A stretch of 64,000 nt of DNA, taken from the NCBI RefSeq assembly GCF_003790525.1, contig NZ_CP033636.1; one strand, written 5' to 3'. A model generated the notes under the pieces. That model made no database searches. It worked only from the letters and a program-made list of their open reading frames with translations, and was not told where the DNA came from. The DNA comes from Escherichia coli (GTDB lineage Bacteria; Pseudomonadota; Gammaproteobacteria; Enterobacterales; Enterobacteriaceae). Both the position numbers and the translations under genes were made by a program. Positions 17,592 to 46,462 of the stretch are shown piece after piece. Every line of letters starts with the position of its first letter. Position 1 is the stretch's first letter.

Positions 17592-18230
17592 TTGAGACGC
17601 TTACCCGTATATCTGCTACTCGACACGTCCGGCTCTATGCACGGAGAGCCTATCGAAGCGGTTAAGAATGGCGTTCAGACGCTGCTTACCACGCTGAAAC
17701 AGGATCCGTATGCACTCGAAACGGCTTACGTGTCAGTGATCACCTTTGATTCTTCAGCCCGACAGGCAGTCCCCCTGACAGACCTCCTGAGTTTCCAGAT
17801 GCCAGCACTAACAGCCAGCGGCACCACCTCTCTTGGCGAAGCGCTTTCCCTCACGGCCAGCTCCATTGCCAAAGAAGTACAGAAAACGACGGCTGACACT
17901 AAAGGTGACTGGCGTCCCCTTGTATTCCTGATGACGGATGGAAGTCCGAATGATGACTGGCGTAAAGGCCTGAATGACTTTAAAGCGGCCAGAACCGGCG
18001 TTGTTGTGGCATGTGCAGCCGGGCATGATGCCGATACCAGCGTCCTCAAAGAAATCACTGAAATCGTGGTTCAGCTCGATACAGCTGACAGTTCGACGAT
18101 TAAAGCTTTCTTTAAATGGGTCAGTGCGAGCATTTCGGTAGGCAGTCAGAAAGTGGAGTCCAGCAAAAAAGAAGTGATCGGTCTTGAAGACCTGCCACCG
18201 CCGCCGCCAGAAGTAAACGTGGTCTTATAA
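17592..18230 (+). CDS. terY: TerY-like vWA domain protein
   Basis: vWA MIDAS motif LLLDTSGSM...LMTDGSPND; proposed TTG start at 17592 preceded by AAGGA, in the same context (AGGAATTACAT) as the next terY paralogue; the track ORF starts at ATG 17511 without an SD. Confidence 0.65.
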   Translation: MRRLPVYLLLDTSGSMHGEPIEAVKNGVQTLLTTLKQDPYALETAYVSVITFDSSARQAVPLTDLLSFQMPALTASGTTSLGEALSLTASSIAKEVQKTTADTKGDWRPLVFLMTDGSPNDDWRKGLNDFKAARTGVVVACAAGHDADTSVLKEITEIVVQLDTADSSTIKAFFKWVSASISVGSQKVESSKKEVIGLEDLPPPPPEVNVVL

Positions 18231-31769: not shown

Positions 31770-32726
31770 TCAAGCAGCTTGTGAAACTGAATCTCCAACT
31801 GCAAGATTTAAATTTCTTAGGTTATCGAAAACTTCAGATACTAAGTCATTACGGTCGTGGATTTTAATCCGCCCACCGGTTAACTCTGAAACATAAACGG
31901 TATGGCAGAGGTCAGTAACCACTTCGCCGTATTCATCAACGACTTCCAAAGATGCAATCATCGGAATATAAGAAGCCGCAGCATAGCTCTCATAAATACT
32001 TATTATGGAGTCATTGTTGCGTCGAGAAATTACCCTACCAGAAGGTAAAGCCTCATCTTCCATATAGCAATCAGATAGGTCCTCACAGAAGTCATTTTCT
32101 TTAAGTGAAATATTAAGGGTCAATTCACTGTTGATAGAGCGTGAATAAGAATATTCACTCAGTTTATAGCAAGCCAAACTAATATCACTAAAAGTTTCAT
32201 AAGCTTTATAGAGGCTCGATGTTATAGACTCAGATACAAATGTTATTAGTCCAATAAAATGAGTATCCCAGAACTGTTGCAAAGCAAAACGGGCAATCAT
32301 AACCTGACCATCAACCTGCATCAGTCTGTTATATTCATCCCGGTCATAACCTTTCGACTGAGAAACATCATTAGACATGCTAAGAACTTCACTACAAACA
32401 TCATCATATTCAAAACGACTAGTTGCAAAGTGTTTTCCTGAAATTTCAAGGTACTGACCAGAGACTGCGTCAAACACCTCAAGAAAGTAACAGAGTCGCG
32501 ATTTTAAAGATTCTCTGTTTAAAGCTTCTATTTCATTCTCAGAGATACTATCGACATATAAATCAACAACATTCTTGAGTTCAATAGCTTTGATATTACA
32601 GGTAAAAGAAAGCTCGTCACTTTGACAATGGCAAACACTTAATACTATATCCGCCTCATCAAAATCTATGCCAAGATAACTCAGAACTGCTCGGACATAG
32701 TTTTTATCATCAGATGAATGTGTCAT
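31770..32726 (-). CDS. paralogue-array protein P5 (about 318 aa, unknown function)
   Basis: Clear similarity to P4 (e.g. QVDGQVMIARFALQQFWDTHFIGLITFV versus KVDGKVLVAKFALKQFFHSDFGDFISFV); ATG 32726 preceded by GAGGTAGTGTAT as for P4. Confidence 0.55.
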   Translation of the reverse strand: MTHSSDDKNYVRAVLSYLGIDFDEADIVLSVCHCQSDELSFTCNIKAIELKNVVDLYVDSISENEIEALNRESLKSRLCYFLEVFDAVSGQYLEISGKHFATSRFEYDDVCSEVLSMSNDVSQSKGYDRDEYNRLMQVDGQVMIARFALQQFWDTHFIGLITFVSESITSSLYKAYETFSDISLACYKLSEYSYSRSINSELTLNISLKENDFCEDLSDCYMEDEALPSGRVISRRNNDSIISIYESYAAASYIPMIASLEVVDEYGEVVTDLCHTVYVSELTGGRIKIHDRNDLVSEVFDNLRNLNLAVGDSVSQAA

Positions 32727-32866
32727 ATACACTACCTCGAATTTGAGAGGAAGTGCCCCAGAAGGGAAGCGACTTCCCCACTGGGTTAGATAAAAATTTG
32801 GTTAAGCTAAAAGAAGATGCCAGCGACAGATTTTACATTGTCATAGACAAGTGTCTTCAGCCAACC

Positions 32867-32877
32867 AAAGTTACTTT
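32867..32877. repeat. AAAGTWACTTT palindrome copy 5 (intergenic P4-P5)
   Basis: Exact match ccAAAGTTACTTTTTTgg. Confidence 0.9.
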
Positions 32878-32897
32878 TTTGGACTGAAGCAAAAGGA

Positions 32898-33836
32898 TCA
32901 TTGAGACGCGTTACGAAAATCGTCAAAAGCTTCAGTTATTAGTAATGTGCGATCAGTTACTCTGTATCGGTCATTACTTTCGAGAGATACGTAAGTTGAA
33001 TGCGAAGAATCACAGACAACACGCCCTCTTTTATTGATCAATCTTACTTCCATCATCACCGGCACATTGATAATTGAAGCAACATCGGTATAGAGGGATA
33101 TGAGGGCATCATTGTCACAATATAACGCCCCGTTCCCATCAAATGTATCGTTAAACTTAATATATATATCTGGCATATTTGCCGGATAATCATCAGTATT
33201 GAAATCAATGCATAACTTTAAGTCATCATTAATACGGCGATTAATCTTATGCTGCCCTACACGTACAAAGCCATGTTCAACAGCTTTGATAATCCTTAAA
33301 GTTTCATTAAGACAATCTGTAATTCTTTTCTCGACAAATGAGATAAAGTCACCAAAGTCGGAATGAAAAAACTGTTTAAGTGCAAATTTCGCAACTAACA
33401 CTTTCCCATCCACCTTCATTTTATCGAGATAAAGATTTCTTATAGCATCAGTAGAAGAATTAGCTTTAGATAACTCTTCACAGTCATTAATAATCATTGA
33501 AACAATATCAATAACTTTAACTGGGCTTAAAGTATTACTATATCCGCGAATATCAAACGTAAAAAATCCGAAATTCTTAAATACTCCAAGAAAATAAATT
33601 ATTTTTTGTTTCAAAAGAATAGAATCGGAGTAAGATGCGTTGTGCTTTATTAGCTCAGATATGTAGAGATCCAACATACAATTTAAATTATCGATATCTA
33701 CATCGTAATCAAAGGTTACTTTGTCGAACGAAGTATCAGATAATTGAACGGTTATATCGTCAGCGGAAACATTAAGGCCTAAATTTTGATAAAGAAAGGC
33801 ACTAACAAATTCCACGTGGTCAGATTCTTTAAACAT
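32898..33836 (-). CDS. paralogue-array protein P4 (312 aa, unknown function)
   Basis: Paralogous to P5; GAGG SD. Confidence 0.55.
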   Translation of the reverse strand: MFKESDHVEFVSAFLYQNLGLNVSADDITVQLSDTSFDKVTFDYDVDIDNLNCMLDLYISELIKHNASYSDSILLKQKIIYFLGVFKNFGFFTFDIRGYSNTLSPVKVIDIVSMIINDCEELSKANSSTDAIRNLYLDKMKVDGKVLVAKFALKQFFHSDFGDFISFVEKRITDCLNETLRIIKAVEHGFVRVGQHKINRRINDDLKLCIDFNTDDYPANMPDIYIKFNDTFDGNGALYCDNDALISLYTDVASIINVPVMMEVRLINKRGRVVCDSSHSTYVSLESNDRYRVTDRTLLITEAFDDFRNASQ

Positions 33837-33902
33837 TTACACTACCTCATGACTAAAAAGGAAGTGCTTCCCACCGGGAAGCAGGTTCCCGGATGGGTTA
33901 GA

Positions 33903-34823
33903 TTAATTATAAAAGAGTTCTTCAGAAGGTACATGCATTTCTGGTTTGAACTGTTTTAAGGAGTTGTTTATAGCTTTTCGATATAACCCTGAAGAGTGTG
34001 GCTTAAACATTTGATATTCCGTAACGAGCAGAGGAGACGTAAAGCATCCTAAGTTCACTAGTGAAATACTTGATGTTTCTTCACAAACATCTAATTCAGC
34101 GTATATCCGCCTCTTCATTACCCTGCCTGCTAAATAGCGACGAACATGATTTATAAACTTGTCCGCATCTGATATAGAATTAACTATATAATCAGATGTG
34201 ACTATCTGATTAGATACAGTTTCAGGTATAGCTTCGGCTATTATTTTTACGTTCATTTCATAATCAACACTATGGAAGCAAGCAAGAATTTGTGGCTTCG
34301 CGCTTTCTAAAATCTTTTCAAGAACAGAAAAAATCAGAGAGAACTCGTTTAAAATTCGCTTTTGTATAAGTCCATGTAGATGTTTTATGAAAGGAGAACC
34401 GTGTTCAACAAGGCCTAGTATAAGATCCTTAGAGGCCAAATCTGAGCGGTAATAAACGTATTCTAGATTATCCCGGTTAAATCCTTTGAAAAGCAAATCA
34501 GGCTGCTCTGAGACCAGTCGTAAATGAGTTGAAGCTATAGAAACTTCAAAACGAAAGTTCGCGAGATTTACAGGACCTGCTTTTAATGTAGCCGCTTCGG
34601 AAAAATAAATGAAAAGAGGATGCAAATCATCGTTACCACTGTAAAGATGGTCTGCACCCTTAAGATATTTCACCAAATGAGGTAGAAAAGATATTACTGG
34701 AATATCAGCCACAAATCGAATATGCCGAAATGGTTTTGAATCCAAATATATATTTTCCACTACAGCGCCAACAAAACCCATTTTAACAAGAATAGATTCA
34801 ACTAACTTTTGTATAGCATTCAT
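33903..34823 (-). CDS. paralogue-array protein P3 (306 aa, unknown function)
   Basis: Same size class and array position; AAGAGGG SD; homology to P4/P5 not verified. Confidence 0.5.
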   Translation of the reverse strand: MNAIQKLVESILVKMGFVGAVVENIYLDSKPFRHIRFVADIPVISFLPHLVKYLKGADHLYSGNDDLHPLFIYFSEAATLKAGPVNLANFRFEVSIASTHLRLVSEQPDLLFKGFNRDNLEYVYYRSDLASKDLILGLVEHGSPFIKHLHGLIQKRILNEFSLIFSVLEKILESAKPQILACFHSVDYEMNVKIIAEAIPETVSNQIVTSDYIVNSISDADKFINHVRRYLAGRVMKRRIYAELDVCEETSSISLVNLGCFTSPLLVTEYQMFKPHSSGLYRKAINNSLKQFKPEMHVPSEELFYN

Positions 34824-34843
34824 TTCAATACCCTCTTAATAGA

Positions 34844-34879
34844 GGGATTTCTCCCATAGGGAGAAATCCCTATGGGAGA
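34844..34879 (-). repeat. Two overlapping, mutually exclusive perfect hairpins between P2 and P3
   Basis: GGGATTTCTCCC-ATA-GGGAGAAATCCC (34844-34870) overlaps TCTCCCATAGGGA-GAAA-TCCCTATGGGAGA (34850-34879); followed by CCCTCT-ATTA-AGAGGG which pairs with the SD of P3. Confidence 0.7.
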
Positions 34880-34891
34880 AAATAATTTTAA

Positions 34892-35827
34892 TTAATAATT
34901 ATAGCGAAGCGCATGTTCTTTTTCACTAAGATGGTTTTCATATTCCGACTTACCAGAACTTAAACACTCTTTGAAAAAGACCTTTGAAAAATTCTTCAAG
35001 TCACTTCGGTTATTAATTTCTTTGTCAGACATCAACTTAGCTGAGTGTGAGGTATCAACAGGCCCCAACCACCATTCATATTTAATATAAACACAATTGG
35101 TTTGTGTATGTCCATTTAGAAATCGTTTTGCATTTCTAAGTATTTTTCTACAACCGTTAAGGTCTGAAAGTAAGATATCTGGAGCAATGAGCTCTTCCAG
35201 AATATGACCAGGTAAGCCTTTCCTAAAAAGCTCAACATCGTAACTACAATACCAGTCACGATAATTAAAAGCTTTAATAAGTCTTTCAGGTGTATCCAAA
35301 GATATCTTATTCAGGATTTTTAATGCAAAGCATACAGCATCTTTTAACAACTCGTGCACCTCAACATTGATAAATGAGAAAAACGAGCTTAATTCTTTCT
35401 CTAAGGAATTATACAACTTACCGTAAATATCCTGAGAAAAAAGATACTGCAATCTTTCTTTATTATAAGTGCAATTCGAAATTGAATAGACTTCTCCTCT
35501 TTCGATTTTGCACCCTTCCCTTAAAACTATAGGAAACCTCAAATGGTTAACAAAGAAAGAATGATTCTTTCTTTGCTTCAAAGCATCTAATTGAAATTTC
35601 GTAATTTCCTCCAGATTTGCATCTTCAAAACCTGGAAAGGGAATATCACAGAAACAAGAACTATATGCTTTTGCTGATTCATACATAAACTCCAGTGAAA
35701 CATCAGCATCAAAAGACATACCAGAGAACATGCCCTGCCCATTGTCTAAAAATGTAATGTTTTTAACCTGTATTTTTTTATGTTGAACAACCAAAAAGGC
35801 ATTAATGATTTTTTCGATAATTTTCAT
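34892..35827 (-). CDS. paralogue-array protein P2 (about 311 aa, unknown function)
   Basis: ATG at 35827 preceded by GAGAGAGG; the track ORF starts at an upstream TTG (35842). Confidence 0.5.
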   Translation of the reverse strand: MKIIEKIINAFLVVQHKKIQVKNITFLDNGQGMFSGMSFDADVSLEFMYESAKAYSSCFCDIPFPGFEDANLEEITKFQLDALKQRKNHSFFVNHLRFPIVLREGCKIERGEVYSISNCTYNKERLQYLFSQDIYGKLYNSLEKELSSFFSFINVEVHELLKDAVCFALKILNKISLDTPERLIKAFNYRDWYCSYDVELFRKGLPGHILEELIAPDILLSDLNGCRKILRNAKRFLNGHTQTNCVYIKYEWWLGPVDTSHSAKLMSDKEINNRSDLKNFSKVFFKECLSSGKSEYENHLSEKEHALRYNY

Positions 35828-35843
35828 GTGATCCTCTCTCAAT

Positions 35844-35879
35844 AAAAAAAGGGATCACTCCCATATGGGGTGTGATCCC
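35844..35879 (-). terminator. Terminator-like hairpin with U7 between P1 and P2
   Basis: On the minus strand: GGGATCAC-(13-nt loop containing palindrome CCCATATGGG)-GTGATCCC followed by T7, then the SD and start of P2. Confidence 0.6.
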
Positions 35880-35897
35880 CACATGGGTATAATTTAA

Positions 35898-36776
35898 TTA
35901 AAAATCTGTAAGACCTAAATCTTTATTTCTACCACAAACTGTAGAAGATATAAGACGTTTTACTCGCTTTCGAGCACTTCGGCCTGACGTATCTTTCAAG
36001 TACATCGGTAATGACAATGATGAAATTTGATTACTTCGCTTATGATGGCAGACTATATAGCCCTGCCTCCACCCCGAACGCACAAACTCACGGATGCGGT
36101 TAATATATGCCGAAGCTTGAGATTTTGTACTTATCGATTCAGAACACTTTAAGTTCTGTTCGATAGAGTAAAGCTCAGCCGCCATGAATTTCACCTCATA
36201 CAGCTCATCGCCATAACTTATAGTTTTCAACAGCTCTTCCTTTTCCCGAATGAAAAATACTTGCTGCATTCCAAGGATCAGGTCATAGGCCTCTCGAAAG
36301 AGGTCGATAAGCTTATTACGAACATAAATCATAAACTCCTCAAAGTGCTGAAGCCAGAAATAAGCCGCATTACTTATTTGTGAATTGTGAGAACAAACAA
36401 GCCCTTTAGCAAGCTCGACCTCTTCCTCCCGAAAAGTAAAGTTACTTTTCTTAAACCGACTTTGTTCAAAAATGCTTTGATGCATTTCTATCCATACAGA
36501 AACAAAACCGAGGGATTCAAATTCTTCGTTTAACAAATGTAAACTTTCGAAGATTTTCTGAATTTCGATCCCGATGTCATATGACAGTGGACATTCTTTT
36601 ATAGAATAAACATAACCGGGTAGGAAGTGAGATAAATGCTCAGTTCGCAAATATAAACTGAATTTAAGTTCTGTCAGTGGTTGTTTCAAAGATAACTTAG
36701 ATGATTCGCTTATATTTACTGGTTCAACGCCATTTCTAATCAAAATAGCTTTTACCAGGTCCGTAGCTAACTTCAT
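35898..36776 (-). CDS. paralogue-array protein P1 (292 aa, unknown function)
   Basis: First gene of the array; GGAGG SD. Confidence 0.5.
   Translation of the reverse strand: MKLATDLVKAILIRNGVEPVNISESSKLSLKQPLTELKFSLYLRTEHLSHFLPGYVYSIKECPLSYDIGIEIQKIFESLHLLNEEFESLGFVSVWIEMHQSIFEQSRFKKSNFTFREEEVELAKGLVCSHNSQISNAAYFWLQHFEEFMIYVRNKLIDLFREAYDLILGMQQVFFIREKEELLKTISYGDELYEVKFMAAELYSIEQNLKCSESISTKSQASAYINRIREFVRSGWRQGYIVCHHKRSNQISSLSLPMYLKDTSGRSARKRVKRLISSTVCGRNKDLGLTDF
36438..36448. repeat. AAAGTWACTTT palindrome copy 6 (inside P1 CDS, encodes S-N-F register)
   Basis: Exact match gaaaagtAAAGTTACTTTTc. Confidence 0.9.
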
Positions 36777-36854
36777 ACAGCCTCCATTCGTTATTGAGGC
36801 CTCCCTGATGCAGGTTGGCCATCAGGGAAAATATGTAAATCAATTAGCAATCAA

Positions 36855-37376
36855 TCAGACCGTTGCCATGACATTGTCAATGTATCTGACAAGGGATGGG
36901 CGGTCGTCCTGTAAGGCAAAACGGCGAAGGTCATCAAGATTATACGCAGGAAGATAATCAGCGTAACCTCGAATACGAAGGTCCTCAACCACAACTTTTA
37001 TATACTCAAATCGTCCAAGATTCCCTTTTAATGGGGGTTTTCCTGGACTAGACAGCATATCGTCTGCTTGCTCCCATGTGATTTCTTTAGCTTCACCACT
37101 ATGTAGATCAAGATGGACATATATGAATGACTTATAATCTCCACGGCAACGAAGATAATATTTCGGATAGAAATATTTGTCACAACGCAACAAACACGTT
37201 CCTGAAGGACGAACTACGTACAACAGGTTTCTGTCATTTTCTAATATGCTATGTTTCAAAATCGTTATATCTATCTCATTATCATGCAGCAAATAGCATG
37301 ACGATGGTTCATTGACGATGCGCGATTTTATAACAGCAGCAAATTTATTAAAAACTTCGTTAATTTGAAAATTCAT
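36855..37376 (-). CDS. hypothetical protein (173 aa)
   Basis: ORF from track. Confidence 0.4.
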   Translation of the reverse strand: MNFQINEVFNKFAAVIKSRIVNEPSSCYLLHDNEIDITILKHSILENDRNLLYVVRPSGTCLLRCDKYFYPKYYLRCRGDYKSFIYVHLDLHSGEAKEITWEQADDMLSSPGKPPLKGNLGRFEYIKVVVEDLRIRGYADYLPAYNLDDLRRFALQDDRPSLVRYIDNVMATV

Positions 37377-37569
37377 TAAAATGCTCTCCGATGTAAAACG
37401 ACGAGCATCACCATAACGGTAATACTCCCGTTATGGGTTTTAATAGTTTATGGAATAACCATGTCATACAACCGACCATAGCCAGTAGTACCGCACATTT
37501 ATTTAACTGAGCAAGCATCTCAGCCGTGAAAAGACCTTAAAGGCAGGTAATTATCACGAAGGAAAGCGG

Positions 37570-37613
37570 TTATCTTATCAATACAATTTTAAAATATAAT
37601 ATTGATAAGATAA
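37570..37613. promoter_or_regulatory. 14-bp perfect inverted repeat TTATCTTATCAATA / TATTGATAAGATAA with 16-bp AT-only spacer (candidate operator or origin-like site)
   Basis: Read directly; immediately followed by the CCCCCGC-AAAAA-GCGGGGG hairpin (37614-37636); lies between the primase stop and the next gene. Confidence 0.5.
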
Positions 37614-37646
37614 CCCCCCCCGCAAAAAGCGGGGGAGTTATCGTTG

Positions 37647-38879: not shown

Positions 38880-38960
38880 GATGATCTCTCTTATCTGGCA
38901 TTGTGAGTTTCTCAATGCCTTCTGCGGTGCAGAAGACAGGGAGAAACCCACAACGCAGAA

Positions 38961-38987
38961 TTTAAGAAAGAGGGCCCGGGGGCCCTC
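38961..38987 (-). terminator. Terminator-like hairpin after the 73-aa gene
   Basis: GAGGGCCC / GGGCCCTC stem followed on the minus strand by a U-rich tract (TTTCTTAAATT). Confidence 0.5.
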
Positions 38988-38992
38988 AACAT

Positions 38993-39214
38993 TTATGCTT
39001 CAGTCGTGAAGCCATTATTCTCAAGACACTGTATGTAGTTATCTACAAGTAACGCAGCCTGCTGGCTATTACCCTCCGCTATAGTGACTTCGCGGAAGAT
39101 TCTTTCCTGAGGGCTATCATTGCTTATAACTTCACCAACACGTCCGAAAATACGGACTTTATGCATCGCACCGACTTTTTCATGTTCTACACGGTAAGTT
39201 TTTATCTGAGTCAT
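38993..39214 (-). CDS. hypothetical small protein (73 aa)
   Basis: AAGGAG SD; no motif recognised. Confidence 0.4.
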   Translation of the reverse strand: MTQIKTYRVEHEKVGAMHKVRIFGRVGEVISNDSPQERIFREVTIAEGNSQQAALLVDNYIQCLENNGFTTEA

Positions 39215-39242
39215 ATTTTGCTCCTTATTCCTTCATGGAGCA
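39215..39242 (-). other. Hairpin that pairs with the SD of the 73-aa gene
   Basis: TTTGCTCC (39215-39222) pairs with GGAGCAAA (39235-39242); on the mRNA the AAGGAG SD lies inside the stem. Confidence 0.45.
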
Positions 39243-39285
39243 AAAAGACCCACCGGGGCCTTTTGCCCCGATTGGGTAGAGTTTA

Positions 39286-41298
39286 TTAAGAAAGTATTTG
39301 ATGAACTAGCTTACTGACTTCAATAGACAATAAAGAAGTATCATCAACTGTTACGAAAGTGTCCGTTTCAAAACCAATTATTTCATCAGTCTTAATACCA
39401 ACACCAACGATTTCTATTCCATTACATTTAGCCTTTTCCATAACTTCGCCGATAGTAAATTCCGATTTATTCGGATAACCATCAGTTATAAGAAAAATTA
39501 TTTTCCTATCGAATTGGCTGTCAAGTAACAGATCAACAGCTGCCATTAAAGCCGATCCCGTAGGGGTATAATAACCCTTACATCCAAGAGTGAATTTCGA
39601 TAGAGATTCCTCAACGCTTTGATCAAACGTTTTGATAATCTCAAATTCACTTTCCTTGAAGGGAAAGACTATATTGGAGACATGCATTTTTGACAAACTT
39701 TCAGCGGCCATCGATAAAGCAAGATCTGACTTAATGGCATGAATATATCTTTCATCATTAGCCATTGACGCTGAAATATCACGAACTAATACGAGGCCAA
39801 CATGCCCTCTATTTTTAGATTCGCTTTGAGCTCTGAAGACATCACGAACTCCCATTGGTGACAGAATTAATCGATTTCCATCGAAGGTAATTCCACGCTC
39901 ATGAGTTTTGTTTCGGCCACGCATTTTAACCTGCTGTAAAACAGACAAGTCGCTACCGATTGAATGACTCAGAGACAAAGCCTCATTGTAAACATTCAAA
40001 TCGATAAGGAGATCAGGGATATCCCATTCAGAAGCACCGAATTCGGCTTTCACGTCATCGGATACTTTTGATGCAATACCTTCAATCTCTTCAGCCAAAG
40101 CATCGTGATAATCTTCGCTATCCTCATCACTGCCAAGAAAGGCATCCAACAAATCTGCCAGTATCTCCCATTGAGCCGATGAAAAGTTACTTTCATCTTC
40201 AACGTTAGTCGAACTGGCTTCATCTGATTCACTCTCGGAAGGGTTAATCGCATCAGTATCGTCTTCAATAATGTTATCACCTGTGGGATTGCCACCGGTG
40301 GGTTCATTATTTCCCTCGTTATCTTCAGCAAGTTCTGAAGGCTCAGAACATCCCTCTTGAGCAAGATCAGAGTTATCGGAAGTATCTGCCTGACCTTCAC
40401 TATCGTCCTCAGAATCATCCTCACGACTATCAGTCGACTCAAGCGATTTATCTTCTGATTCGGTATCGGTATCGGTATCGGTCTCGGATTCATCATATGC
40501 CTCCTGCTCCTCCTGCTCTGTCTGCTGCTGTTGTTCCCTTGCCTCATCCCGCAGTCTCTCTAAAAGAGCCAGGGTCTTACGAGCAAGGGATTCACAGCCC
40601 TGAGTATTTTCACAACCAAGAGCATCATGAAAAATTTCCTCAACATCAGAAATTACTGGAGAAAGTATCTTTTGGGCATAGTCAAAAAACGGATCGAGTG
40701 TTTCTTTGTGACCTGCCTGCTGAAGGACTTTTACTCGCAATGAGTTAAGCAGATACCACTCAATAAATAGGACAGGATTTTCCGGACGAGAAGATATATC
40801 AGGAGTCATCCTTCCGGCTTTAACCATCAGTGCGTAAGTGGCTGCAAGCCGCCGCTTTGCATCCGGATAATCGTTACCAACCTTCTCTTCCATCTGTACA
40901 TCATCGAACAGATTTATAAGCCCGGTAAGACGTTTTGCCCTGCTATAAGCTTTACGTTTCTCAGCGAGGCTCTCAAACTCTGCATTCATTCCGTCATCGA
41001 AGCGTGTAAACCCTTCAGATGACTTGAGAACACTATTAAAGGCGTCACTGTAAACCTCGCTGTCGGTATAGCGACCATGACCAGCTTCATGACAGGTAAA
41101 ACCTTCAATCAGACTGACAAAGTCATCATCGCTATAATCGCCGTTTGGTAAAACACAAACTTTATTTACAGGATCAAAATACGGTCCTTTGGTATTGTCG
41201 TCTATTACAACTCTTACATCGCCTAAGCCGCTAATGACTTTTGCTATATTCTGTAAACGCTTAATATGGCGCGGTGATGATTTAAGATCTAATTTCAT
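39286..41298 (-). CDS. vWA domain protein with acidic low-complexity region (CobT-like)
   Basis: 670 aa; C-terminal vWA (LVLVRDISASM...FLITDGYPN); central acidic, Asp/Glu/Ser-rich region with TDTDTDTE repeat; AAAGAGG SD. Confidence 0.65.
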   Translation of the reverse strand: MKLDLKSSPRHIKRLQNIAKVISGLGDVRVVIDDNTKGPYFDPVNKVCVLPNGDYSDDDFVSLIEGFTCHEAGHGRYTDSEVYSDAFNSVLKSSEGFTRFDDGMNAEFESLAEKRKAYSRAKRLTGLINLFDDVQMEEKVGNDYPDAKRRLAATYALMVKAGRMTPDISSRPENPVLFIEWYLLNSLRVKVLQQAGHKETLDPFFDYAQKILSPVISDVEEIFHDALGCENTQGCESLARKTLALLERLRDEAREQQQQTEQEEQEAYDESETDTDTDTESEDKSLESTDSREDDSEDDSEGQADTSDNSDLAQEGCSEPSELAEDNEGNNEPTGGNPTGDNIIEDDTDAINPSESESDEASSTNVEDESNFSSAQWEILADLLDAFLGSDEDSEDYHDALAEEIEGIASKVSDDVKAEFGASEWDIPDLLIDLNVYNEALSLSHSIGSDLSVLQQVKMRGRNKTHERGITFDGNRLILSPMGVRDVFRAQSESKNRGHVGLVLVRDISASMANDERYIHAIKSDLALSMAAESLSKMHVSNIVFPFKESEFEIIKTFDQSVEESLSKFTLGCKGYYTPTGSALMAAVDLLLDSQFDRKIIFLITDGYPNKSEFTIGEVMEKAKCNGIEIVGVGIKTDEIIGFETDTFVTVDDTSLLSIEVSKLVHQILS
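40183..40193. repeat. AAAGTWACTTT palindrome copy 7 (inside vWA CDS, S-N-F register)
   Basis: Exact match tgAAAAGTTACTTTcat. Confidence 0.9.
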
Positions 41299-41314
41299 AG
41301 AATACCTCTTTATA

Positions 41315-41362
41315 AAAAAGGGGTACTCACCCAGATGGTGAAGTACCCATCTGGGGTTTTTA
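41315..41362. terminator. Bidirectional terminator-like palindrome between the 379-aa gene and the vWA gene
   Basis: AAAAAA-GGGGTACTCACCCAGATGGTGAAGTACCCATCTGGGG-TTTTT; nested stems CCCAGATGG/CCATCTGGG and GGGTACT/AGTACCC flanked by A6 and T5. Confidence 0.6.
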
Positions 41363-41375
41363 ATAAAGCAAACAG

Positions 41376-42503
41376 TTACCAGCCTTTGAGCTCGATATCA
41401 AAACCATTTTCAACATTGTCTTCCTGTTGCGAAACTGATTTCTCAGGTTCAGCTACAGGATCAGTGTTTGAAAACGTGCTGTTATTTATATCGTTCTCTA
41501 CGACAGGTTCAACCTGGAACACATTTGTTGAATCTAAAATAGCTTCAATACCTGTGTTCTGTAGCGCGTTCGGTTCTGTTTGTGAGCTTTGATTAAATGA
41601 TCTGGTAATAGATTCCAACCAGTCAGTAACCTTTTGCTCTCCTGAAATAATACGCTTTAACATTGAAGCATCACTCATGAAATAAAACCACTGCTGTAAC
41701 ACCGCAACGTCGCGAGGTTCAGAAATGGCACCTTTAGGTAAATTATTCATTATGTGTTTTATAGCTTCTGCAAGTACTGCCGCCTCTTTATGTATAAACA
41801 TGAAGCTAATGATCTTATTTTGCATTTGCTTCAGTCGGTCAATAGTACTTGAGCGCAAATTGTTATTTTTGCTAATTTTTTCATAAACCTTCATTGCTTC
41901 TTCTGCCAGATCTGTTATCAATTGTTCCTGATAGTAGTCCTGGGTTTCATCACCTTCAACGCTAATAGGCGTAAAAGGAATAAAGTGAGCAATATTAAAT
42001 CTAAAGGATTTTATGAAATCATCTTTAGTTAATTTCAACTGATCAATCAAAGAAGACATTCTTGGGCTTCTATTTTTTTCAGCCTCAATATGCATCTCAT
42101 AATTGTCTACAACGTTTTGAATACCTGCCTGAAACTCTCGTTCAATCTCTTGGGCCCCTTCCAGAAACTCTTCCATACTGGATACTGGTAAAATCCACAT
42201 ATTGCTATAGCGGATGCACAAGCGTGAGCAAAGAGTTGATATTCTGCTGGTAATCGTACTTTTGAAGCTAAGGGCTTTTATGTCAATCCAGCGTACTTCG
42301 CTTTTAGATACGCTTTTTTGATCCGTAATATCATCTCCATCATAAGACAAATCGATTTTATCGGTTCGACGCGATCCTTGACAGCCACTTATTTCAATTT
42401 TTGTTATAACTGCACCTTCCAGTAAATCTGGATATGATTTTGCAAAATTCTCAGAGATTTGTTTTGCAGATACTTTGTTAAGCATTGAAGTATTTAAAGT
42501 CAT
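41376..42503 (-). CDS. hypothetical protein (about 375 aa)
   Basis: ATG at 42503 preceded by GGAG; the track ORF starts at TTG 42515; sits between the AAA+ and vWA genes. Confidence 0.45.
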   Translation of the reverse strand: MTLNTSMLNKVSAKQISENFAKSYPDLLEGAVITKIEISGCQGSRRTDKIDLSYDGDDITDQKSVSKSEVRWIDIKALSFKSTITSRISTLCSRLCIRYSNMWILPVSSMEEFLEGAQEIEREFQAGIQNVVDNYEMHIEAEKNRSPRMSSLIDQLKLTKDDFIKSFRFNIAHFIPFTPISVEGDETQDYYQEQLITDLAEEAMKVYEKISKNNNLRSSTIDRLKQMQNKIISFMFIHKEAAVLAEAIKHIMNNLPKGAISEPRDVAVLQQWFYFMSDASMLKRIISGEQKVTDWLESITRSFNQSSQTEPNALQNTGIEAILDSTNVFQVEPVVENDINNSTFSNTDPVAEPEKSVSQQEDNVENGFDIELKGW

Positions 42504-42871
42504 GGGTTTCTCCAAAAAAAAGGGGAAACCCTCCCCAACGGGAAAGATTTCCCGATAGGGTTGATATTAAAGCTTCTCTGGTGAAATTAAAAGAATACCG
42601 GGAAACTCAGCAACAACATCATCATTGCCCATTGCTCCCTGATACATATAACCTTTTAATTCCATTTGTTTAATCAGACCTTCCATATTTATTTTACCAT
42701 CATGATAAAACAATAAAGAATAGTCGTTATTCAGTTGCATAAGTCCAGTAAAATTAGTTCCGTTTTTTGCTATAGCAATGGTAGCAGCACCATCCGTACT
42801 TAAAAACGCACTAAATTCAAGATGGGATAACTCTGAGATACAAATATCAGAGGTTTCATAACAAATCCCAT

Positions 42872-43930: not shown

Positions 43931-43987
43931 TTTTAACTCCGGTAAAATGCAAACACCGCCCTCTGGCAGATGTTTGCCAGTGGCATT

Positions 43988-44965
43988 TTATTTGAGATTC
44001 ATTTGGCAAATAGTTGCCATCAGTTTCCTGATTTGAGGCACATTATAACCAAGATGATTTCCCACTATTTCAAAAGCTTCAGACATGATCCATTCAAAAT
44101 GATTTTCGAATATTGGATTGATTTCTAACTTGCCAAAAGCGTTTCGTTTAGTTAACAGATCACATGAAACAAGCTCGTCAAACAACTCTAATGTGGATTT
44201 AAAAGCTTTTATGTAAACATCCATAATTTCCCTGTCAGTCCATTTAACAGCCAGTTTTTTTTCTGACATTAAATAATCCTGATCAAAGAAGATGTCCCAG
44301 CCCATATCGTCATTGCAATCATGCAAAATGATTTCATCATCATTCCTGCATTCAGCTAATTTCGTGTTTTCACTAATCGAACGATGCGAATGATAATAGA
44401 GCCATGATTTTAATTCCGCTCTAAATTCACATGCATCAAGTCCATGACATAAACAAGTGTATTCAAATGATTTTGACATATACCACCGTGTTTCAGCTTC
44501 TAAAAGTGGATTCACTGTGATATTACCATTGTCATCTTTGAAGAATAACTTTCTCCTCAACACTAGTTCTTTAATGATTTCCAAAGACTCTTCCATAGCG
44601 GATAGAAAAACAACATACACATCCTCAGGGGTCCATTCTATTACCAGACCACCCAAATCTGGGTTATATTCTTCAACCGTATATAGATAATCTGTTTCTG
44701 CTGCAAAATTAATTGTATGCAAAATCTGATTTTTAAGTAATTTGGATTTTTCATAAAGGTGATTTTCACGCCTTTCAGAATCATAATTTATCTCAGAAAT
44801 GTTACTTTCTTCTGATTTAAAGTTTAATCCGGACGTGTAAGCATCATTTAAATGCTCTTTGGGTGAATCAACTATTTGCGTTATTTCATCTTCATCTATA
44901 TCGAGTATAGAAAAAAAACTAAGTTGATTACTACTTATTGCAGTAGCCCTAAATTTTTGTTTCAT
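43988..44965 (-). CDS. hypothetical protein (325 aa)
   Basis: ORF from track; GGAG SD. Confidence 0.45.
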   Translation of the reverse strand: MKQKFRATAISSNQLSFFSILDIDEDEITQIVDSPKEHLNDAYTSGLNFKSEESNISEINYDSERRENHLYEKSKLLKNQILHTINFAAETDYLYTVEEYNPDLGGLVIEWTPEDVYVVFLSAMEESLEIIKELVLRRKLFFKDDNGNITVNPLLEAETRWYMSKSFEYTCLCHGLDACEFRAELKSWLYYHSHRSISENTKLAECRNDDEIILHDCNDDMGWDIFFDQDYLMSEKKLAVKWTDREIMDVYIKAFKSTLELFDELVSCDLLTKRNAFGKLEINPIFENHFEWIMSEAFEIVGNHLGYNVPQIRKLMATICQMNLK

Positions 44966-44978
44966 GGGGACTCCAAAA

Positions 44979-45005
44979 GGAGAAATCCCATGAAGGGATT
45001 TCTCC
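44979..45005 (-). repeat. Perfect 11-bp-stem hairpin, arm-swapped relative of the hairpin at 34844
   Basis: GGAGAAATCCC-ATGAA-GGGATTTCTCC; same stem sequence as 34844-34870 with the two arms exchanged; followed on the minus strand by UUUU, SD and ATG. Confidence 0.7.
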
Positions 45006-45025
45006 CCTTTAGGGTGGGTTTAATG

Positions 45026-45403
45026 TCAGATCTGATTAAAGCTACTTTGTCCAAAACCTTTTAGAGGTTTAGGTATGTGAGCCAACTTACTTGTTGCTAC
45101 CACTCTCATGTAGTCAAGAGGATGTTCTCTCCCTTCAATCATAATAGTATCGACAACAATATAACCGGAGACCATCAACTCATCACCCTGATTTATACCA
45201 GTGAAACAGGTTGAATACATTTCAGGCGACACCTTGATTTGAACTGAAAATTCTCTCTCAGTGATTTCACCATCAACTTCTGTCTTCATCCTATTTTTGA
45301 GCTTTATTAACAAACCTATACTCTGGTCAGTCATTTTTTTCTCCACAGCACTGATAACTATCCCGGACACTTTTACTTCATTGATATATTCAAGATATGA
45401 CAT
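45026..45403 (-). CDS. hypothetical protein (125 aa)
   Basis: GAGGAG SD. Confidence 0.4.
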   Translation of the reverse strand: MSYLEYINEVKVSGIVISAVEKKMTDQSIGLLIKLKNRMKTEVDGEITEREFSVQIKVSPEMYSTCFTGINQGDELMVSGYIVVDTIMIEGREHPLDYMRVVATSKLAHIPKPLKGFGQSSFNQI

Positions 45404-45460
45404 TTTCCGCTCCTCGATTTGTTCAAAGAGAAGCCCCGTTAGGGTTCCCCCTTAACAGGA

Positions 45461-46333: not shown

Positions 46334-46462
46334 TTGGGGTCACCTATATATAGTAAGAAGGAAGAAACAATTTTTTGTTTCAACACGAAGGCAAAGCCTG
46401 TCATTCATCTCCCGTAAGCTATGAACCGCCTGATTTATACTATCTGGCATTAGAAGTACGCA

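Follow-up and report, generated by a model that had tools for sequence, protein, structure and literature searches.

Eleven spacers between genes of an IncHI2 plasmid of Escherichia coli were found to share one RNA design, in which two successive hairpins, H1 and H2, lie just before the start codon of the downstream gene. The window analysed is a stretch of 64,000 nucleotides (nt) from contig NZ_CP033636.1, and the eleven spacers lie in a block at 32.7-45.5 kb, within a run of about 24 co-directional minus-strand genes (27.0-48.5 kb), with the common design on the mRNA strand (Table 1). The structure of this family of modules is under selection: it is conserved in orthologous spacers of diverged IncHI plasmids, with compensatory changes in its helices. 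From the folding models, the modules are probably cis-acting mRNA structures that mask ribosome-binding sites and exert translational control.

H1 is clamped by G+C pairs, with the consensus ACCC[A/U]-n2-4-GGG..loop..CCC-n2-4-[U]GGG, a stem of 6-16 base pairs (bp; median 10) and a predicted energy of -13 to -25 kcal/mol. In IncHI2 it starts 1-10 nt past the upstream stop codon in seven spacers and 20-200 nt past it in the other four. H2, with a stem of 5-14 bp and loops that are 78% A+U, begins 0-4 nt past H1, and its 3' arm is the Shine-Dalgarno sequence of the next gene, ending 0-7 nt before the ATG. Pooling all lineages gives 46 distinct spacer sequences, in 40 of which these two adjacent hairpins are the most stable predicted fold. 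The 11 copies lie on a single strand, in the same orientation and in a fixed register to the Shine-Dalgarno sequence and ATG. To expose positions -15 to +3, a predicted 10.8 kcal/mol is needed at the 11 genes with modules, versus 6.0 at the remaining 47 genes in the window (Mann-Whitney p = 6e-6). As sense RNA, the spacers at 32.7-45.5 kb have z values of -1.3 to -8.7 against dinucleotide shuffles, with 11 of 13 at or below -2.2, and spacers just outside (29-31.6 kb and 46.3 kb) have z near 0.

A third pairing connects the two hairpins. X1, made up of the loop and upper 5' arm of H1, resembles X2, the Shine-Dalgarno arm of H2, and is complementary to X', the 5' arm of that same H2. Thus, X' can pair with either partner: pairing with X2 masks the ribosome-binding site, and pairing with X1 frees it. 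The predicted X1:X' duplex energy is approximately -10 kcal/mol within a module versus approximately -6 between modules (p <= 5e-5 by permutation, for each of three lineages), and the H1 loop with 2 nt on each side is by itself preferentially complementary to its own X' (p <= 0.002). One position covaries across all three segments in the spacer preceding gene 34892-35827, with GAUCAC/GUGAUC/GAUCAC in IncHI2 versus GAUUAC/GUAAUC/GAUUAC in the IncHI1 types.

The preliminary description of this DNA had reported two hairpins, at 44979-45005 and around 34844, that use the same stem with exchanged arms. An exact-stem scan bears this out: GGAGAAATCCC-ATGAA-GGGATTTCTCC at 44979-45005 has a perfect 11-bp stem and a 5-nt loop, and AGGGATTTCTCCC-ATA-GGGAGAAATCCCT at 34843-34871 has a 13-bp stem and a 3-nt loop and is overlapped by a 15-bp stem at 34848-34881. 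The 11-mer GGAGAAATCCC occurs in four exact copies in the window, which are both arms of both hairpins with strands exchanged between them; shuffled windows contain a mean of 1.05 copies, and four were reached in 1 of 100. Both spacers are non-coding, the first being 60 nt long between minus-strand genes 45026-45403 and 43988-44965 (z = -2.4 for sense RNA 44963-45028), and the second 68 nt long between minus-strand genes 34892-35827 and 33903-34823 (z = -6.0 for 34821-34894). Both hairpins are in fact X1:X' pairings. They are not stand-alone units, each being a competing pairing within a module of two hairpins and a ribosome-binding site.

At 34.8 kb, the hairpin 34843-34871 pairs the top of H1 with X' in the module before gene 33903-34823. 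When enforced, it has a predicted energy of -26.6 kcal/mol versus -34.7 for the 15-bp H1 together with the Shine-Dalgarno-masking H2. At 45.0 kb in IncHI2, the X1:X' pairing is the most stable predicted fold (-24.4 kcal/mol), extended by GGAG pairing with ACCC at 45012-45015. An H2-type alternative at 44963-44992, involving X' and the loop CAT, is predicted at -21.2 kcal/mol, i.e. 3.2 higher. In this alternative, the top GGGA-GAAA-UCCC is followed by CAUGGG..CUCC-UUUU-GGAG..CCCAUG, such that CAUGGG pairs with CCCAUG and CUCC with GGAG, and both the Shine-Dalgarno sequence and AUG are masked. It is the most stable predicted fold in six other lineages (L003, L005, L007, L008, L011 and L015), and it explains the conserved CAU in the loop of the 45.0-kb hairpin, which here pairs with the start codon. 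X1 of this module is invariant in eight lineages, even where the upstream protein is only 32% identical.

The exchange of arms is not itself evidence of selection on structure, as had been suggested, although the structure is selected. Both arms have the form GGGA-N4-TCCC, the outer parts of which are self-complementary, so that the exchange amounts to a swap of the centre, GAAA versus TTTC (UUUC in RNA). The IncHI1 orthologue of the 34.8-kb hairpin has a different sequence and still pairs (GGGAATTCTTCCC/GGGGAGGATTCCC; as RNA, GGGAAUUCUUCCC/GGGGAGGAUUCCC); thus, only in IncHI2 are the two stems identical, a lineage-specific coincidence in a family of Shine-Dalgarno-like and anti-Shine-Dalgarno-like words.

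The same modules are found in the orthologous spacers of an IncHI1 plasmid (L003, approximately 72% DNA identity) and of a second HI1B-like lineage (L004, L006, L011 and L012), and also, where the genes exist, in pNDM-MAR-like plasmids and a K. grimontii contig, where the proteins are 24-57% identical. Wider relatives came from a scan of genome contigs (2 loci) and a metagenome scan (13 loci), and are mostly IncHI1-like or pNDM-MAR-like. The modules were not found at the locus of one distant relative (L020, ATPase 33% identical). They are thus fixed in position in three or four diverged IncHI lineages, contrary to the lack of conservation and of fixed positions that the preliminary description had named as refuting. 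Comparison of IncHI2 with IncHI1 gives 77% identity for the modules versus 68% for neighbouring genes, with 48% at third codon positions.

Alignments of orthologous spacers return the consensus H1+H2 fold. Thirteen spacers were aligned, namely the 11 modules and the structured spacers before the AAA ATPase and primase-like genes; they contain 245 predicted pairs, of which approximately 95% of cells are paired and 20-21 pairs are changed on both sides. In the spacer before the DUF3150 gene (alignment A3, six lineages), 95% are paired compared to 45-80% in slid controls, the covariation score is reached by none of 500 shuffles, and three pairs are changed on both sides. The H2 of this spacer is entirely re-written in the pNDM-MAR-like plasmids with its pairing kept (GGGUUUCC/GGAGAAACCC versus GAUAUUUUUCCGG/CUGGAGAAAUAUC), and a second H2 is likewise re-written there and still paired (GAGUACC/GGUAUUC versus GCGCCCAU/AUGGGUGC). 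The module before the VWA gene has 4-5 pairs changed on both sides, and a further alignment (A4) also confirms structural selection. The covariance analysis that had been proposed as a check therefore finds compensatory changes in the orthologous spacers, but just one in the 45.0-kb stem itself, where 88.5% of cells are paired and two central pairs are broken in the IncHI1 types. As a separate observation, in the pNDM-MAR-like plasmids (L005 at approximately 17600-17690; L015, L016 and L017) the spacer that separates the AAA ATPase and DUF3150 genes contains, directly 5' of H1, a C tract of variable length (C7 to C15), which could be slippage-prone.

The distribution of the modules was examined with an annotation-free detector (two abutting hairpins, a Shine-Dalgarno sequence in the last 3' arm and an open reading frame of at least 50 codons) over 258 kb of the plasmid. 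It matches 10 of the 11 modules, all at record positions 75.9-89.6 kb, and no annotated gene start outside the block in the 258 kb scanned. The detector is permissive, with approximately 55 matches at internal reading frame starts in G+C-rich accessory or coding DNA. The 45.0-kb module is missed because its most stable IncHI2 fold is a single long X1:X' hairpin rather than two domains. A dispersed intercistronic family specific to this block, as first proposed, is therefore what is found, and the further stems assigned to it at 33860-33890, 32755-32785 and 42530-42560, as well as the G+C-rich ones at 35844-35879 and 41315-41362, are all real hairpins in spacers of the block. MAFFT alignment across modules reveals no common core beyond the CCC/GGG clamps. 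A family-wide covariance model was abandoned, since that alignment carried no common structure (consensus energy approximately 0 to -4). Tandem gene duplication was rejected as the source of the family: paralogy among the genes downstream of modules is detectable only for the pair 31770-32726 and 32898-33836 (27% identity), and the modules thus stand before genes unrelated to one another.

Perfect palindromes could fold on either strand or be bound by dimers, and this property, the location of the block next to Tra2 on a conjugative plasmid and the 11-mer common to two spacers would all suit elements that act as DNA, such as palindromic protein sites, hairpins in transferred single-stranded DNA, or mobile repeats of the repetitive extragenic palindromic (REP) or miniature inverted-repeat transposable element (MITE) kind. 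This explanation is barely credible given the strand asymmetry of the structures, which favours RNA over duplex DNA: summed over the spacers, the consensus energy is predicted at -284.9 for sense versus -232.8 for antisense, 12 of 13 spacers have the lower energy on the sense strand, and the 13 spacers have 123 G-U pairs on the sense strand versus 60 on the antisense. Single orientation and the fixed register to Shine-Dalgarno and ATG also argue against it, as do the differences between module sequences beyond the clamps and the lack of copies elsewhere in the 258 kb scanned. REP- and MITE-like repeats were rejected on the grounds of no shared core, an 11-mer present in just two spacers, single orientation and confinement to the block. 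The relaxase and oriT region (mobH, mobI) is approximately 105 kb from the block, which is therefore not the leading region, and leading-region single-stranded DNA promoters were rejected for the same reason.

A terminator role had also been considered in the preliminary description. Either H1 itself, or X1:X' followed by a U-run with H1 as antiterminator, would be an intrinsic terminator or attenuator. The mutually exclusive pairings that this needs do exist, a consensus scan of 29.0-48.9 kb finds 29 terminator-like sites versus 13.5 expected, several of them in module spacers, and in IncHI2 4-8 T follow X' in several modules (e.g. T8 at 42504-42531 and T7 at 35828-35858). A minority of copies fit, such as 39248-39277. 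However, at least 5 T in 8 nt are found after H1 in only 11 of 40 sequences and after X' in 11 of 40, often without conservation between orthologues, and the trait constant in all modules is masking of the downstream Shine-Dalgarno sequence and start codon, not a U-tract. Orthologues of the first nine block genes in plasmid R27 form a cluster of unknown function that is co-induced 5-23 fold at 25 C (Gibert et al., PMC7366339). These nine genes correspond to R27 R0002, R0001 and R0210 to R0204 (gene mapping checked), and their co-induction across six spacers suggests read-through and speaks against efficient termination. Termination as the general role of the modules is therefore distinctly unlikely. 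Separately, H1 was rejected as a terminator of antisense transcripts, as an A-run 5' of H1 is present in only 11 of 36 sequences and H1 contains G-U pairs.

The thermoregulation of this operon at the transcript level (PMC7366339), together with Shine-Dalgarno sequences masked by hairpins that contain G-U pairs, would also be compatible with RNA thermometers of the ROSE or fourU type, in which melting of H2 would tie translation to the temperature dependence of IncHI conjugation. This is very improbable: H2 is predicted at -8 to -14 kcal/mol at 37 C, with the fully open state not reaching 50% below 80 C, heat would increase expression through melting, opposite to the induction at 25 C, and there is no match to a thermometer in Rfam. 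More generally, an Rfam 15 covariance-model search of 27-49 kb gave no relevant match at E <= 1, but just four weak chance matches (to microRNA and other models) far below gathering scores.

Stable hairpins between every pair of cistrons could alternatively be mRNA punctuation, with H1 guarding the upstream 3' end and H2 the downstream 5' end after cleavage in the A/U-rich H2 loop or the linker, or, in a variant, with the hairpins as barriers to RNase E scanning. Cistron levels would then differ. The strength of H1 and the A+U-rich H2 loops agree with this, as do microarray signals along the R27 operon at 25 C, which are non-monotonic from R0002 to R0204 (172, 1306, 1201, 310, 268, 921, 197, 352 and 403), and the processed transcripts reported elsewhere on R27 (PMC7366339). 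Left unexplained are the constant identity of the H2 3' arm as a Shine-Dalgarno sequence ending at the start codon, and the specific complementarity of the H1 top to its own X'. RNase III prefers about two helical turns, and stems of 6-16 bp are short for that enzyme. Punctuation by itself is thus an unlikely account, and it can co-exist with translational control.

Under translational control, H2 would mask the ribosome-binding site of the next cistron in the ground state. Disruption of H1 would be the most likely trigger, for example by a ribosome terminating on the upstream cistron, which would be a relay form of translational coupling; X' would then be captured by X1 and the ribosome-binding site freed. 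The hairpins probably also buffer segments of the mRNA against decay. From these models, we infer that the modules most likely set or gate translation initiation of each cistron. A termination-coupling trigger is partly supported for some modules by modelling of a terminating-ribosome footprint, the effect of which is strong for the spacers before the DUF3150 gene, 34892-35827 and 32898-33836. Small upstream reading frames (e.g. AUG GUU AUU CCA UAA; 37437-37480 on the minus strand, with an equivalent in L003) end approximately 10 nt before H1 of the module of gene 36855-37376; as read from the sequence, they could be the source of the terminating ribosome required at this site by the coupling model.

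Two more specific proposals are tentative, and rather doubtful even when taken together. In the first, a relay code, each ribosome-binding site would be unlocked only when the ribosome ending the previous cistron opens the base of H1, allowing the decoy top of H1 to capture the anti-Shine-Dalgarno arm X' as a hairpin or compact pseudoknot. Translation would pass from gene to gene along the full-length operon mRNA, and spurious internal transcripts, expected in A+T-rich plasmid DNA silenced by H-NS, would stay untranslated. In the second, the conserved ACCC...GGGU base of H1 would be the common site of a putative plasmid RNA-binding regulator, tying the block to temperature-controlled transfer. 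A PHROGs search with 20 block proteins gave matches only for the CobS-like, CobT-like and primase-like proteins, and no candidate for an RNA-binding protein.

Several points weigh against control of translation by the modules. All structures and energies are computed predictions. The number of independent lineages per spacer is approximately 5-8, making covariation per helix modest, and there is little covariation in the 45.0-kb stem because it is almost invariant. The X1:X' pairing is predicted to be thermodynamically inferior to H1+H2, the ground state, in most modules. When the footprint of a terminating ribosome is modelled at +12 nt, the predicted opening cost falls by at least 3 kcal/mol in 11 of 32 instances; at +9 nt, 5 of the 32 respond in this way, and the four modules 20-200 nt from the upstream stop are too far for a footprint. 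Lastly, about a quarter of sequences have a U-rich run behind H1 or X', and some modules may also attenuate transcription.

By analogy, the logic of the modules appears closest to coupling in repY-repZ and repB-repA, as a variant of masking mRNA structure with an anti-sequestor. Work attributed to Asano and Mizobuchi in 1998 and to Praszkier and Pittard in 2002 is said to have found that base pairs form between the loop of a hairpin farther upstream and the 5' side of a hairpin locking the downstream ribosome-binding site, and that this pairing is needed for activation of translation after the upstream frame has been translated. In PMC8053102, repY-repZ of the IncI-alpha plasmid ColIb-P9 and repB-repA of the IncB plasmid pMU720 are described as systems of pseudoknot-dependent translational coupling. 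The modules resemble these systems in the predicted sequestration of the ribosome-binding site in a hairpin, and in the complementarity of the H1 top to the 5' arm of the masking hairpin, with its one three-way covariation. They differ in the location of the upstream stop, which is 1-26 nt (or 105-200 nt) 5' of H1 and at least 35 nt from H2, rather than within the locking hairpin. The modules are related to these systems neither in sequence nor through Rfam (no match at E <= 1), and no antisense RNA is known for the modules, which are in spacers of 57-78 nt, antisense promoters not having been sought beyond a general consensus scan. In addition, the modules are found as eleven copies before unrelated operon genes rather than as a single-copy replication control. 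As H1 and H2 abut (0-4 nt), an H-type pseudoknot would be sterically possible only after the lower stem of H1 opens.

In classical translational coupling, as in MS2 coat-replicase and rpmI-rplT, the masking arm is within the upstream coding sequence and is unwound directly by ribosomes. The modules are similar in that the downstream Shine-Dalgarno sequence is masked locally and upstream translation is a natural opener, but both arms of H2 are intercistronic, so that a relay via H1 is needed, which modelling supports for approximately one third of instances. Like Rho-independent terminators, the modules are G+C-rich stem-loops in spacers, some copies of which have U-runs; however, a U-tract is absent from approximately 72% of module sequences and is not conserved, and the modules are inside a co-regulated operon in fixed register to the next start codon. 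Intercistronic stabiliser hairpins, REP elements and the RNase III sites between phage T7 early genes are structured punctuation of polycistronic mRNA, and the modules likewise are multiple structured elements that punctuate such an mRNA. They differ from these in having no repeat sequence and one orientation, in incorporating the Shine-Dalgarno sequence and in being absent elsewhere on the replicon (258 kb), and their stems are shorter than typical RNase III substrates.

Table 1. Positions in the window of the eleven modules and of their predicted parts.
Feature	Position	Strand	Parts and remarks
Module before gene 43988-44965	44963..45015	-	X1 44995-45005 (GGAGAAATCCC, also the GGGA-GAAA-TCCC top of H1); X' 44979-44989 (GGGATTTCTCC)
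Landmarks of the 45.0-kb module	Shine-Dalgarno GGAG 44971-44974; ATG 44963-44965	-	
Module before gene 33903-34823	34831..34881	-	H1 34848-34881 (15 bp, loop UUUC); H2 34831-34846 (CCCUCU-AUUA-AGAGGG, masks Shine-Dalgarno)
Module before gene 45026-45403	45409..45459	-	H1 45435-45459, 1 nt past upstream stop; H2 45409-45434, includes GAGGAG
Module before DUF3150 gene (41376-42503)	42504..42560	-	H1 42533-42560 (CCC..GGGAAA-UC-UUUCCC..GGG); H2 42504-42531 (GGGUUUCC..GGAGAAACCC)
Module before VWA gene (39286-41298)	41300..41355	-	H1 41330-41355, loop GUACUUCA complementary to X'; H2 41300-41328
Module before gene 38993-39214	39216..39277	-	H1 39248-39277; H2 39216-39245 (UUUUGCUCC..GGAGCAAAA)
Module before gene 36855-37376	37380..37436	-	H1 37411-37436; H2 37380-37409; approximately 200 nt from upstream stop, in a 270-nt spacer
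Module before gene 35898-36776	36779..36828	-	H1 36802-36828; H2 36779-36801
Module before gene 34892-35827	35828..35887	-	H1 35860-35887; H2 35828-35858, ending one base before ATG; clearest three-way covariation
Module before gene 32898-33836	33839..33897	-	H1 33870-33897; H2 33839-33867; 4 pairs changed on both sides
Module before gene 31770-32726	32729..32785	-	H1 32757-32785; H2 32729-32756; approximately 105 nt from upstream stop

The window is 100% identical to positions 44171-108170 of E. coli plasmid pEC6622-1 (NZ_CP096588.1; IncHI2A/MOBH, conjugative). A phage origin was rejected, there being no megablast match in a phage collection and the window being IncHI2 plasmid. Along the window, the ter operons are followed by the run of about 24 genes, which ends at the Tra2 helicase gene trhI, and then by Tra2. 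Genes of the run are mostly annotated as hypothetical; those recognisable encode a CobS/MoxR-like AAA ATPase, a DUF3150 protein, a CobT-like VWA protein and a primase-like toprim protein. At 31770-36776 there are five consecutive genes of 292-320 codons, each with a module and none with a PHROG match. In the 394-nt spacer between trhI and the first block gene, the last approximately 95 nt (46334-46430, minus strand) are near-identical between IncHI2 and IncHI1, compared with only 60% identity of the encoded protein; on the basis of this conservation, 46334-46430 is probably a promoter or regulator target of the cold-induced operon. Outside the window, pEC6622-1 carries blaNDM-5 (NZ_CP096588.1 11568-12380; L021) and a large multidrug-resistance region.

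Other structured elements were noted nearby. The spacer before the AAA ATPase gene (43931-43987, minus strand) contains an atypical relative of the modules, a hairpin CUGGCA-AACAUC-UGCCAG. Its loop GCAAACA has a complementary sequence, UGUUUGC, 12 nt further downstream, with AUUUU after it. The element does not vary between IncHI1 and IncHI2, and this gene has an unmasked Shine-Dalgarno sequence (predicted opening energy 6.4 kcal/mol). Just upstream of the primase-like toprim gene (38895-38987, minus strand), there is a near-perfect hairpin of approximately 25 bp, GCGUUGUGGGUUUCUC...GAGAAACUCACAAUGC, in a spacer with z = -8.7. Another G+C hairpin, at 38970-38987, comes before it. The long hairpin is unlike the H1+H2 modules and is conserved in IncHI1, HI1B-like and pNDM-MAR-like loci; it could serve as an operator, a small RNA or a site for RNase III. 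Downstream of the primase-like gene, a 270-nt spacer contains a strong terminator-like hairpin, CUCCCCCGC-UUUUU-GCGGGGGGG (37615-37637, minus strand), and directly after it a 16-bp A+T-rich inverted repeat, GGTTATCTTATCAATA-N16-TATTGATAAGATAACC. The region 37568-37637 is likely the end of the nine-gene operon together with the operator or promoter of the next unit.

IncHI plasmids are major vehicles of resistance to colistin, carbapenems and multiple drugs, and this copy carries NDM-5. The genes behind the modules (for the CobS-like ATPase, DUF3150, CobT-like VWA and primase-like proteins and the proteins of approximately 300 residues) are backbone genes of unknown function that are induced with conjugation at low temperature. 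No description of the modules was found in the literature on IncHI and IncHI2 hairpins, stem-loops and intergenic elements, and these hairpins are not mentioned in PMC7366339 or in a comparative IncHI preprint. If the modules are ordinary stabilising hairpins, their practical value is limited to better annotation; relay coupling, if true, would raise their interest. The eleven modules point to a post-transcriptional layer of control of this block, previously undescribed in the literature searched. As eleven naturally occurring versions of a single RNA switch design in three parts, they would be useful for studying how translational coupling or gating is constructed and as parts for synthetic operons.

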